This document shows positions 1-3,000 of a stretch of 40,202 nt of DNA, piece after piece. Every line of letters starts with the position of its first letter. Position 1 is the stretch's first letter. Location: the UHGV virus genome UHGV-0358046. One strand, given 5' to 3'. The stretch is from a virus. The position numbers are program-made.

Positions 1-3000
1 TTAACAGCTAACTCATAGCAACTCATTCCTATTCAGATACTAATTTAACCCTCTGTTTTTACAGAGGGTTTTTGTTTTTATGTATTCATTTCTATTCACT
101 ATACACCATATTTTTCGTCGGTACAGGTGACGGTATTACCTTAAAGGTATACTCTCATACCGTCATGAAAATGGTTTCTATACGGGTGAATTGTGCTTAC
201 CGATACAAAATTAAAAAACCTCAAGCCGCAGGACAAACTGTACAAGGTCTCCGATCGTGACGGGCTGTATGTAGCTGTGCTTACGTCAGGCACGGTCTCG
301 TTTCGCTATGACTACCGTATCAACGGTCGCCGCGAAACACTGGTAATCGGGCAGTATGGGCGTGACGGTATCAGCCTGGCAGAAGCGCGGGAAGAACTGA
401 TTGCTGCAAAGAAGCTGCTTAAAGCAGGCCAGTCACCGGCTGCGGCTAAACGTGACGGTATCAAAAAGATTCGTGGTGCCGAGACGTTTGCGGTACATAC
501 CGACAGTTATATGAAACACGTTATCCTGGCTGACAGTACCCGCGCAATGAAGCAGGCGGTGATCGACCGTGACATACTTCCGGTTCTTGGCAACAAAATG
601 ATGGCTGAAATTACCACATCGATGGTTCGTGATTTGTGTGACCGGATTGTCGAACGCGGTGGTCGGGCAACAGCAGTACAGGCCAGGGAGATCATCAGCA
701 GCGTATACCGTCACGCCAATGACCGTGGTCATGGTTTGTTTAATCCTGCGGCTGACATTAAACCTTCGTCTATCGCCATATTTAAACCACGAGAGCGAAC
801 ACTGACACCAGAAGAAATTGGCCTGTTCTTCCGCACGCTGGATGCCATTGGTGCTATGGGCACTATGAAAATGGCTTTAAAGCTGGTGCTTATCACTATG
901 GTTCGTAAAGGCGAATTCACCAATGCAACGTGGGATGAAATAGATTTTAAAAAATGGACATGGATAATTCCTTCAGACCGCATGAAGGGAAGCCGGGCGC
1001 ACGTTATTTACCTGCCTAAACAGGCACAGGATATATTGGTTGGGTTGCAGATGTGCGCTGGTGGAAGTGAATATCTGGTTCCTGGTCGTTACAATTTCCG
1101 GAAGCCATTATCTAATGCCGCGCTGAACTCTCTGATCGACAGAACGGTGAAAATAATAAATGAAGATGGTGAGCATATTCAGGGCTTCACCGTACACGAT
1201 ATGCGCCGTACAGCCAGTACGTTGTTGCATGAGGCTGGTTATCCTTCAGACTGGATTGAAAAGGCTCTGGCACATGAGCAGAAAGGTGTGCGCGCCGTAT
1301 ATAACAAAGCGGAATACGCCAGACAGCGCGCCTACATGTTGCAGCAGTGGGCCGATATGATTGATTCCTGGATTAACGGGGAGCATACGGATCTGATTCC
1401 GTTCTCCCCGTCGAAGTTTGAGAAGTGGATGGCGGGGGAATAATTTTGCCCGGCACATCCCTGTGCCGCCGCCGTCAGAAGAACCCTGCCTTGTCGTTGA
1501 TGTACTCCGCGTGCGTCTGGATATCACGCAGGCATTTACTCACACCGACGATGTAGCAGAACATGGTGGTCAGTTCCGCCGCCGCGCCCGATACGTCGTG
1601 CCCGTCTTCCTGTAACTTGTTCAGCAGATTCATCAGCAGTGAGTTCTCCGTCAGGCCGAGAACACCAGACGGAGAATGAATCAGGCTGCGGTAGCCGGGC
1701 TTCAGCGGGGCACTGTATTCTTTTTTGTCTTCCAGCTTGATCGCCTCCATAATGGCGGGCATGAAGCCTGACAAGACCTTCTCCACTTTTGTTTCTTGTT
1801 GTCTTAAACGTTTCTCGCATTCAATGAAGTAGCATCGTACCTGACGACCTTTTTCGTTACGCTCGACCATCGCCAGCTCTTTGGCTGTATCGAGGGTGAG
1901 GTGGTAGTCTTTTGCAGGACGGCCTCTGCCTATTTTTTCCCGAACTTGGGAAATAATCATAAAGTCTTGATTTTCAACGAAACCATATTCAGCAATTCGT
2001 TCGACAATCCACGAAGCAAATCGCTTACCTACATCGAGGAAAGAGTGTAAATCACGGGCATTAACGAGAAGAGCGGTTTCGTTGGATATAGTGCCGTTGA
2101 ATACGGGGATGAGTTGACTGGTCATGATGACCTCCTTTGAAGTTTTAGTTAGCAATCACCAGTTAGTAGCTGGTGATCGGGTGTCAACTAGAGCCTTCAA
2201 AGACGCTCCGGGCATATTCCCCTTTTGGGTATTGTATTACGCCTCTCCACCCGACCTTTGTACGGATGTGACTATGCCAAATTGCAGGCATAAAAAAGCC
2301 GCAAAGCTATCGGGTGCGGGTGACCGCTTTGAAGTTCTAGTGCGGTCAGTATGCGATAGCTCTGGCGGCATTGTCAAATCATGCGCCACTGAGTCCAGCA
2401 ATCTCTGCAATACCAATAGCGAGATAATCGCGATTCGTCAGGCGTGATTTTATTGCATATGTCTTAGCTCCACTGAAGTTGTGATTTTATATGGGTTGCC
2501 TTTTACCTCAATAACACGATGAGGATCATTTTTTAGTTCTTCCGTAATCTTCCGTAATGTTCTAACAGCTGAACTTCGGTGTTTATAACGGTAAGTTACA
2601 GTTTCTTTTCTCTGCAATACCTCATCATTGCGGTACTTAGTCAAAACCATGACGACTTCAAACCTGACGCCGTTGTGTGCAACCATAATCTGCTTCATGC
2701 TGCACGCTCCCGCCCCTGGTTGTCTGTTGGTGACAGCGGAGCATTGCTGAATGCATTTGTTAATCTGGCAATATCCAACGCGTATCCAGGGTGTAGTTGC
2801 ACTGCCGGGTCTTCGCACTGATTACCCCAAACATCGAAACCATGAGACGACTGGCGGGCGAACAGTTCAATGCGAGAAACATCGCCTAACAATTGCACAA
2901 GTTTTTCACGAACGATATCTGGCTTTCTTGAATGCTCAAGCCGCGGTGCGGTAAATGACTGAACGATCCCTGCATTAATGCGCGTAGGTAGTTTTCCCTT

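Follow-up and report, generated by a model that had tools for sequence, protein, structure and literature searches.

Why should a prophage end two genes that begin with different domains in virtually the same stretch of DNA? This question is raised by the virus genome UHGV-0358046, a sequence of 40,202 nucleotides, the whole of which is referred to here as the window, where a 266-bp near-identical direct repeat constitutes the 3' ends of two putative antirepressor genes, designated gene A and gene B. The window represents a phiV10/epsilon15-like (Uetakevirus) prophage with 97–98% identity over most of its length to HEMP4, ZX5, TL-2011b and phiV10. As detailed below, the protein module encoded by the repeat appears to be a fused paralogue of the structurally characterised antirepressor Ant of phage SPC32H, and a third, standalone copy of the module appears to be the LexA-controlled ant gene of the prophage; the recognition of these relationships is the added value of the present analysis. 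A label such as 'BRO-N / AntA antirepressor, C-terminus unknown', which applies to hundreds of prophage genes of Escherichia coli, Klebsiella and Enterobacter, can thereby be replaced by a specific, structure-backed hypothesis, namely that the constant C-terminal domain of those fusions is a paralogue of the Rep-binding SPC32H Ant, whereby the function of the fusions becomes directly testable. Equally, the hypothesis points to multi-input induction control in a prophage family that is common among gut E. coli. A description of the fused Ant-module architecture has not been found in the searchable literature, and the authors of the work on phage ZX5 noted only a Bro-N domain in the homologous protein, with neither a link of its C-terminus to Ant nor a mention of the standalone ant (PMC9782041).

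The repeat and the module it encodes

The two repeat copies at 1452–1717 and 32884–33150 comprise 266 and 267 nt, respectively, with 11 substitutions and one 1-nt indel between them, which corresponds to approximately 96% identity (MAFFT and local alignment); the few substitutions and the single indel read by eye in the initial annotation have thus been confirmed by pairwise alignment. The longest perfect run within the repeat extends over 83 nt (1515–1597; local alignment), and a weaker similarity continues beyond it up to 1750 and 33180. Chance is not an issue, because the pair is the sole long repeat that a repeat finder detected in the 40-kb window. Both copies are located on the minus strand in direct orientation, 31,433 bp apart, in agreement with the 31.4 kb initially estimated. 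Each copy consists of a 16-nt hairpin in the 3' untranslated region (UTR; GGCACATCCCTGTGCC on the plus strand), a short stretch of 3' UTR, the stop codon and the final 80 codons of the respective gene, with the hairpin at 1452–1467 and the stop codon at 1475–1477 for gene A and at 32884–32899 and 32908–32910 for gene B. The 80 encoded residues differ by a single K/Q exchange, so that the common C-terminal module on an AntA-like and a BRO-N-like protein, as initially proposed, is upheld.

The identity of this module was initially sought in KilA-C. However, neither the 86-aa module nor the C-terminal 124–130 aa of proteins A and B matched any Pfam family at E<=10, and NCBIfam equally provided no match for the module; the assignment to KilA-C/ANT (PF03374) was rejected because even at this permissive threshold no Pfam match was obtained, an outcome which the initial annotation had itself named as refuting its reading in this respect. 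Instead, phmmer aligned the module over 77 residues with SPC32H Ant (PDB 5D50) at E=7.8e-15. An AlphaFold2 model of moderate confidence (pLDDT 77, pTM 0.50) is all-helical with a long C-terminal helix, and in a Foldseek search against the PDB the model retrieved only the Ant chains of 5D50 (5D50_G/H; prob 1.0, 39% identity, TM 0.58–0.72). Judged by homology and by the predicted structure, the A/B module is a paralogue of SPC32H Ant with the same fold. Among phage protein families, the module belongs to PHROG 450, which groups standalone proteins of 88 aa with unknown function, and it recurs as the C-terminal part of several PHROGs annotated as 'anti-repressor'.

A predicted Rep/Ant switch in the same prophage

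According to the summary of Kim & Ryu (2013) given in PMC7380047, the non-cleavable repressor Rep of SPC32H is inactivated by the LexA-controlled Ant, and PMC9638917 describes SPC32H Ant as a tetramer that binds two Rep dimers. Counterparts of both proteins are encoded in the window. The predicted prophage repressor (6349–6933, minus strand), a helix-turn-helix protein, is homologous to SPC32H Rep along its entire length (phmmer against 5D50_A, E=4e-42); both Ant and the fused modules presumably act on it. The third, diverged copy of the module, correctly noticed initially as standing alone at 33914–34171 (minus strand; copy C), encodes an 85-aa protein which is approximately 40% identical to the A/B module (tblastn E ~1e-17) and is the orthologue of SPC32H Ant (phmmer against 5D50_E, E=4e-47); it is homologous to epsilon15 gp19 and phiV10 gp24 and belongs to PHROG 450. 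A near-consensus LexA box (TACTGTATAAACATACAGTT, 34191–34210, minus strand), the sole box that a LexA-box scan found in the window, is positioned 20 nt upstream of the ATG of copy C. From the orthology to SPC32H Ant, the LexA box and the Rep homologue in the same window it follows that copy C is, as predicted from sequence, the canonical, LexA-controlled ant gene of the prophage. With these three features the prophage resembles the SPC32H Ant/Rep system (Kim & Ryu, 2013; Kim et al., 2016; PDB 5D50). Downstream of ant, a terminator-like hairpin followed by a T-run (33761–33774, minus strand; terminator scan), located where the phiV10 annotation equally has a terminator, separates ant from gene B.

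Two fused genes of variant architecture

Gene A (1475–2125, minus strand; 216 aa) and gene B (32908–33600, minus strand; 230 aa) combine the Ant-like C-terminal module with an AntA and a Bro-N domain, respectively, whereby the start codons are those assigned by PGAP in a 99.9%-identical relative (L004); the longest open reading frame of gene A starts at 2155. The domain search proposed with the initial annotation placed both N-terminal domains well above the gathering score: residues 31–100 of the long reading frame of gene A matched AntA (PF08346) with E=9e-28 and 97.2 bits against a cutoff of 27, and gene B matched Bro-N (PF02498) with E=2e-13 and 51.2 bits against a cutoff of 25.6. Compared with the small single-domain Ant (approximately 86 aa; 85 aa for copy C), genes A and B represent a variant architecture and not plain members of the SPC32H type, because they are two-domain fusions. 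In contrast to SPC32H Ant, they carry the Ant domain as the C-terminal part of a 216–230 aa protein behind an unrelated N-terminal domain, lack a LexA box of their own and share only approximately 40% identity with Ant in this domain; Rep binding and tetramer formation are putative.

Gene A is itself chimeric. Its first approximately 115 aa and approximately 260 nt of upstream DNA match antB of Shiga toxin (Stx) phages with 86% nucleotide identity, and Stx-phage AntB carries a P22_AR_C C-terminus where gene A has the Ant module. Inside the stretch in common with the DNA upstream of antB lies a candidate promoter (TTGACA-18-CATACT, 10/12 positions; 2348–2377, minus strand), recognised by its consensus match, and no further gene of the leftward early block follows gene A on the same strand.

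Modular phage antirepressor/BRO/KilA proteins with shuffled N- and C-terminal domains were reportedly described by Iyer, Koonin and Aravind in 2002. The genes studied here share with such proteins (Pfam AntA, Bro-N, ORF6N, P22_AR_N, Phage_pRha, P22_AR_C, ANT) the combination of one C-terminal module with many N-terminal domains, and the N-terminal half of gene A is the one it has in common with Stx-phage AntB. On the other hand, the C-terminal module corresponds here to no named Pfam C-terminal domain, but to the small, lineage-restricted PHROG 450 family. In the type phage phiV10 (L002, NC_007804.2; 19551–20230), the Bro-N antirepressor gene carries a frameshift within the module, and its annotation lists gp23 and a 29-aa gp22; because of this frameshift, phiV10 probably does not possess a functional fusion.

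N-terminal partners and distribution of the module

An initial word-indexed protein search returned 28 mostly short proteins and was replaced by an exhaustive profile search, tblastn against phage genomes and a scan of IMG/VR. Among 1.84 billion representative proteins, the module family amounts to 59 clusters, and IMG/VR contains roughly 415 copies of the module. In 35 of 50,697 phage records tblastn detected the module; all 35 are epsilon15/phiV10-like, and each carries a standalone Ant-type match or a second copy of the module. The family is small and belongs mostly to one lineage, without being strictly confined to Uetakevirus genomes. Salmonella members such as epsilon15, SPC32H and SPN1S possess the standalone Ant only, and members from E. 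coli, Klebsiella and Enterobacter possess Ant together with one or two fused copies. In these relatives the same module, with 92–100% amino acid identity, has been found fused to AntA, two Bro-N alleles, ORF6N and P22_AR_N, and more distant versions are fused to Rha, a range of partners that bears out the domain shuffling initially suspected.

Eighty IMG/VR loci were compared with respect to the position of the fused gene, either int-proximal (locus A) or just downstream of ant (locus B). Locus B is the usual site, with the canonical ant (antC) upstream in nearly every locus that was long enough. Locus A is rare and always occupied by an AntA-type gene, in 5 of the 80 loci and, as positional orthologues of gene A beside int, in 23 of 5,426 complete E. 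coli genomes. In about a quarter of the IMG/VR loci a second fused gene occurs in inverted, tail-to-tail orientation. In L007 (NZ_CP135671.1, 32900–36550) and approximately 20 IMG/VR loci (L020, L058, L063 and L084 among them) this inverted gene is 1.1–1.4 kb away from the first, which brings the number of module copies to up to four per prophage; L007 additionally harbours a truncated P22_AR_N pseudogene. Inverted copies of the module could exchange sequence by inversion with neither gene being destroyed.

A 95-aa standalone module of the A/B type (P0007; gene at 6001–6288) is encoded on Klebsiella/Raoultella metagenome contigs (L009–L011), at the edge of a P4- or satellite-like element with a DUF927/Toprim primase, SSB, a T7_gp14-like protein and Rap1a, which adjoins chromosomal genes. 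P0007 may serve a satellite as an antirepressor.

Proposed function and its alternatives

We consider it likely that the prophage combines a switch of the SPC32H type with fused paralogous Ant domains that serve as accessory antirepressor cassettes. In the mechanism proposed, lysis and lysogeny would be switched as in SPC32H, with Rep inactivated by the small LexA-controlled Ant from copy C. The 266-bp repeat, which comprises the 3' hairpin and the part coding for a paralogous Ant domain, would be the constant 3' half of interchangeable 'antirepressor cassettes', a half for which at least five kinds of N-terminal domain are known as partners in this family. The window prophage holds two such cassettes, one of the AntA type beside int, the rare position, and one of the Bro-N type just downstream of ant, the usual position. 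Proteins A and B may use the Ant-like module to bind Rep and to inactivate it, and probably form tetramers for this as SPC32H Ant does. As neither fused gene has its own LexA box, these accessory antirepressors would be wired differently from ant: gene B might be expressed by read-through past the ant terminator, from the ant promoter, or from a promoter of its own, and gene A, at the end of the leftward early block, from its own promoter-like site at 2348–2377.

Experimental data are provided by ORF4 of vB_EcoP_ZX5, described as an 'anti-repressor', which occupies the gene B locus and consists of a Bro-N domain and a C-terminal stretch of approximately 125 aa identical to that of gene B, although its Bro-N allele is another one. 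Overexpression of ORF4 promoted the lytic cycle, with the lysogen titre declining from 1e9 to 1e6 (approximately 1000-fold) and rep transcription reduced by 75% (PMC9782041). In its regulatory logic the system would also resemble the Gifsy/Fels antirepressors and Tum of phage 186, to which no sequence relationship was seen here, none having been searched for, and which are trans-acting and LexA-controlled (Lemire et al., 2011; Shearwin et al., 1998, as cited in PMC7380047); according to this source these are small SOS-controlled proteins that inactivate a non-cleavable repressor, and a prophage or host may carry several of them.

Several observations weigh against this proposal. The ZX5 result is the phenotype of an overexpressed whole protein and does not assign the activity to the module, and binding of Rep by the A/B-type module is putative. 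The module is approximately 40% identical to canonical Ant, with the identity mostly in its N-terminal half (approximately 48% versus approximately 26% in the rest, as counted from the alignment with 5D50 Ant) and lowest in the long C-terminal helix. In the scan of the window no LexA box with <=1 core mismatch was found upstream of gene A or gene B, and the candidate promoters of both genes are consensus matches only. Furthermore, P0007 resides in a different, satellite-like element, so that Uetakevirus genomes are not strictly the only carriers of the module.

The main rival, which we regard as unlikely, holds that in the fusions the module functions as an oligomerisation (tetramerisation) domain only and that the fusions are transcription factors which do not bind Rep. 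Bro-N, AntA, ORF6N, P22_AR_N and Rha are domains of a DNA-binding type, a DNA-binding domain combined with an oligomerisation domain is a standard regulator architecture, and the absence of a LexA box from the fusions, the all-helical model with its long C-terminal helix and the tetrameric state of Ant are in line with such a role. However, conservation with Ant is highest in the N-terminal half of the module, and the pro-lytic phenotype of ZX5 ORF4 with its lowered rep transcripts as well as the association of the module with the Rep/Ant-switch lineage, nearly always beside ant, argue against it. The presence of three paralogous copies of a tetramer-forming domain in one genome and their constant co-occurrence with ant would also be compatible with fused paralogues acting on Ant instead of Rep and tuning or blocking SOS induction through mixed tetramers with the standalone Ant. 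This alternative seems highly improbable, as the two module types share approximately 40% identity only, least of all in the long C-terminal helix, and the ZX5 phenotype is pro-lytic.

The proposal that the fusions are accessory antirepressors may be extended, tentatively and with considerable doubt, to the idea that the Ant fold is a portable Rep-targeting 'warhead', mounted on at least five N-terminal domains (AntA, Bro-N, ORF6N, P22_AR_N, Rha) under varied promoters, with the module and hairpin doubling as a swap linker between phages and between two genomic sites. If this applied, one repressor would be switched off by several inputs, namely SOS via the LexA-controlled Ant, early-operon feed-forward via gene A and possibly signals perceived by the N-terminal domains, and the standalone copy in the satellite-like element might hint at a use of the module in hijacking the induction of a helper phage.

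Cassette boundaries and the age of the repeat

The boundaries of the cassettes coincide with the conserved 3' hairpin. In all 13 copies examined, homology between the loci ends directly after the 3' arm of the hairpin; the inverted cassette of L007 ends at a position corresponding to 32885 of the window; and the cassette match of phiv142-3 covers exactly 1452–2129, from the hairpin to the start codon. Because of these homology stops and cassette ends, the module and the hairpin behave as a conserved 'linker' for cassette exchange, and they provide a clean example of a coding module plus hairpin employed as a recombination linker. AntA-type genes have been found at locus B in phiv142-3 and in many IMG/VR loci, which shows that this arrangement arises from cassette replacement and is not the product of a reciprocal recombination. 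The hairpin was also considered as a classic intrinsic terminator, which was rejected, since the terminator scanner did not flag it and at locus A no T-run follows; it is retained as the cassette boundary hairpin.

How old is the relationship between the two copies? In the last 80 codons, genes A and B show 10 synonymous and one non-synonymous differences (dS=0.20, dN=0.0055 substitutions per synonymous and non-synonymous site, respectively), and backbone genes of related prophages diverge by 1–2% only. A–B pairs from the same genome differ on average at 9.2 positions per 236 nt compared with 8.7 for A–B pairs overall; in a larger set the values are 8.8 (direct) and 7.7 (inverted) for pairs within a contig and 8.3 for pairs between contigs, such that copies within a contig are no closer. 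Concerted evolution of the A and B copies within a genome was rejected, as same-genome pairs were no closer than others. Fixed differences between A and B are entirely missing, 61 of the 105 informative site pairs are incompatible under the four-gamete test, and one identical 236-nt allele is present at both loci. In gene B, the Bro-N coding part is 99.5–100% identical between the window and relatives while the adjoining module differs by 4–5.5% (Fisher p 1e-6 to 2e-3). A comparison of 102 module copies, in which figures for N-domain diversity are biased low as they derive from full-length ungapped matches only, revealed 94 alleles with a nucleotide diversity (pi) of 3.8% versus 0.86% for the neighbouring antC and 48 synonymous versus 12 non-synonymous segregating sites. 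The module is thus under purifying selection, and its alleles are shuffled between loci at the population level; it constitutes a hyper-diverse, recombining but protein-constrained allele pool that is shuffled in the long term among paralogous cassettes and phages. Recombination within the module that involved both paralogue classes is suggested by an 84-aa standalone protein (P0016 in alignment A3), which looks chimeric, with an N-terminal half like the canonical Ant of copy C and a C-terminal half like the fused A/B type.

Thus, the DNA identity between A and B persists because the protein is constrained and the copies occasionally exchange sequence, and not as a consequence of recent duplication. 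A recent intragenomic duplication or gene conversion in this prophage, the reading of the initial annotation, would readily account for the approximately 96% nucleotide identity, and the sites 1574 A and 1538 T, shared only by both window copies and the A copy of the near-identical L004, could represent a short conversion tract. Nevertheless this reading is already largely refuted and very unlikely, as dS is about tenfold the 1–2% backbone divergence of related prophages, copies that share a genome resemble each other no more than copies from different genomes do, gene A is found at the same locus in the 23 complete genomes and 5 IMG/VR loci, and its 5' half derives from antB of the Stx-phage type. 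Of the initial wording, 'recent' can therefore not be maintained, while gene conversion stands in a loose, long-term sense, given the lack of fixed A/B differences, the four-gamete failures and a module that differs by 4–5.5% next to N-domain DNA that differs by 0–0.5%. The repeat is a real but ordinary instance of phage domain mosaicism and not a fresh duplication.

Recombination between the repeat copies

The direct orientation of the repeats had led to the suggestion that RecA-dependent recombination would delete most of the prophage; on this view the DNA repeat itself would be of importance, as a substrate for RecA- or RecT-dependent deletion that creates a cryptic remnant. The predicted event would excise 31,433 bp, so that approximately 8.8 kb would remain, with int, gene B, ant, the tailspike and the lysis genes. 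Contrary to the initial expectation of a chimeric antirepressor, the predicted product is simply gene B with the 3' end of gene A, thus no new chimera. Mechanistically such a deletion is possible: the perfect run of 83 nt exceeds the usual minimal homology for RecA, and the prophage itself encodes a phage RecT and a PD-(D/E)XK nuclease. However, a junction query composed of the 3' end of int, the repeat and the Bro-N part found no place with >=80% coverage in the 5,426 complete E. coli genomes, in 564 of which parts of the query matched, and in none of the 80 IMG/VR loci was one and the same gene flanked by int downstream and by antC upstream. Deletion as a route to cryptic remnants is therefore not supported in natural genomes, and we assign to it only a minimal likelihood. 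Rare events are still possible because the population at risk, the 23 genomes with gene A beside int, is small.

Other features of the prophage

Relatives of the window prophage are integrated between guaA and yfgI. The att core ATTGAGTGGGAATGATT, reported as attP/attR for ZX5 and phiV10 (PMC9782041), occurs once in the window at 39701–39717 on the attR side; this single occurrence suggests that the first position of the window lies just inside or past attL. The prophage is flanked by a 27-nt direct repeat (AACCCTCTGTT..ACAGAGGGTTTTT) that contains a hairpin, at 47–73 and 39744–39770. The tyrosine integrase gene int (193–1443, plus strand), assigned by domain search and comparison with relatives, is convergent with gene A, whereby the two stop codons are 31 nt apart (1444–1474) with the cassette hairpin between them. 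The predicted RNA fold at this hairpin reaches about -20 kcal/mol compared with about -10 at locus B, and the hairpin between int and gene A could act as a bidirectional terminator.

The tailspike gene (34367–37486, plus strand) encodes a full K1 endosialidase with End_N_terminal, End_beta_propel, End_beta_barrel, End_tail_spike and Peptidase_S74 domains, and at the same site relatives carry quite different tailspikes of 2.2–2.8 kb, a glycosyl hydrolase 28 among them. Variable cargo (moron) genes are located between the structural genes and gene B at 32044–32679 (minus strand) and 31525–31941 (plus strand). One of the products is a 211-aa protein (PHROG 1349, without a Pfam match) and the other a putative lipoprotein with an N-terminal signal and a lipobox-like motif (MRKVFLIFGFMLLVGC); in relatives this site is taken instead by a YafO-family toxin or a DUF2335 protein. 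A tRNA-Arg(TCT) gene (15169–15245, minus strand) between the terminase and portal genes is conserved in relatives.

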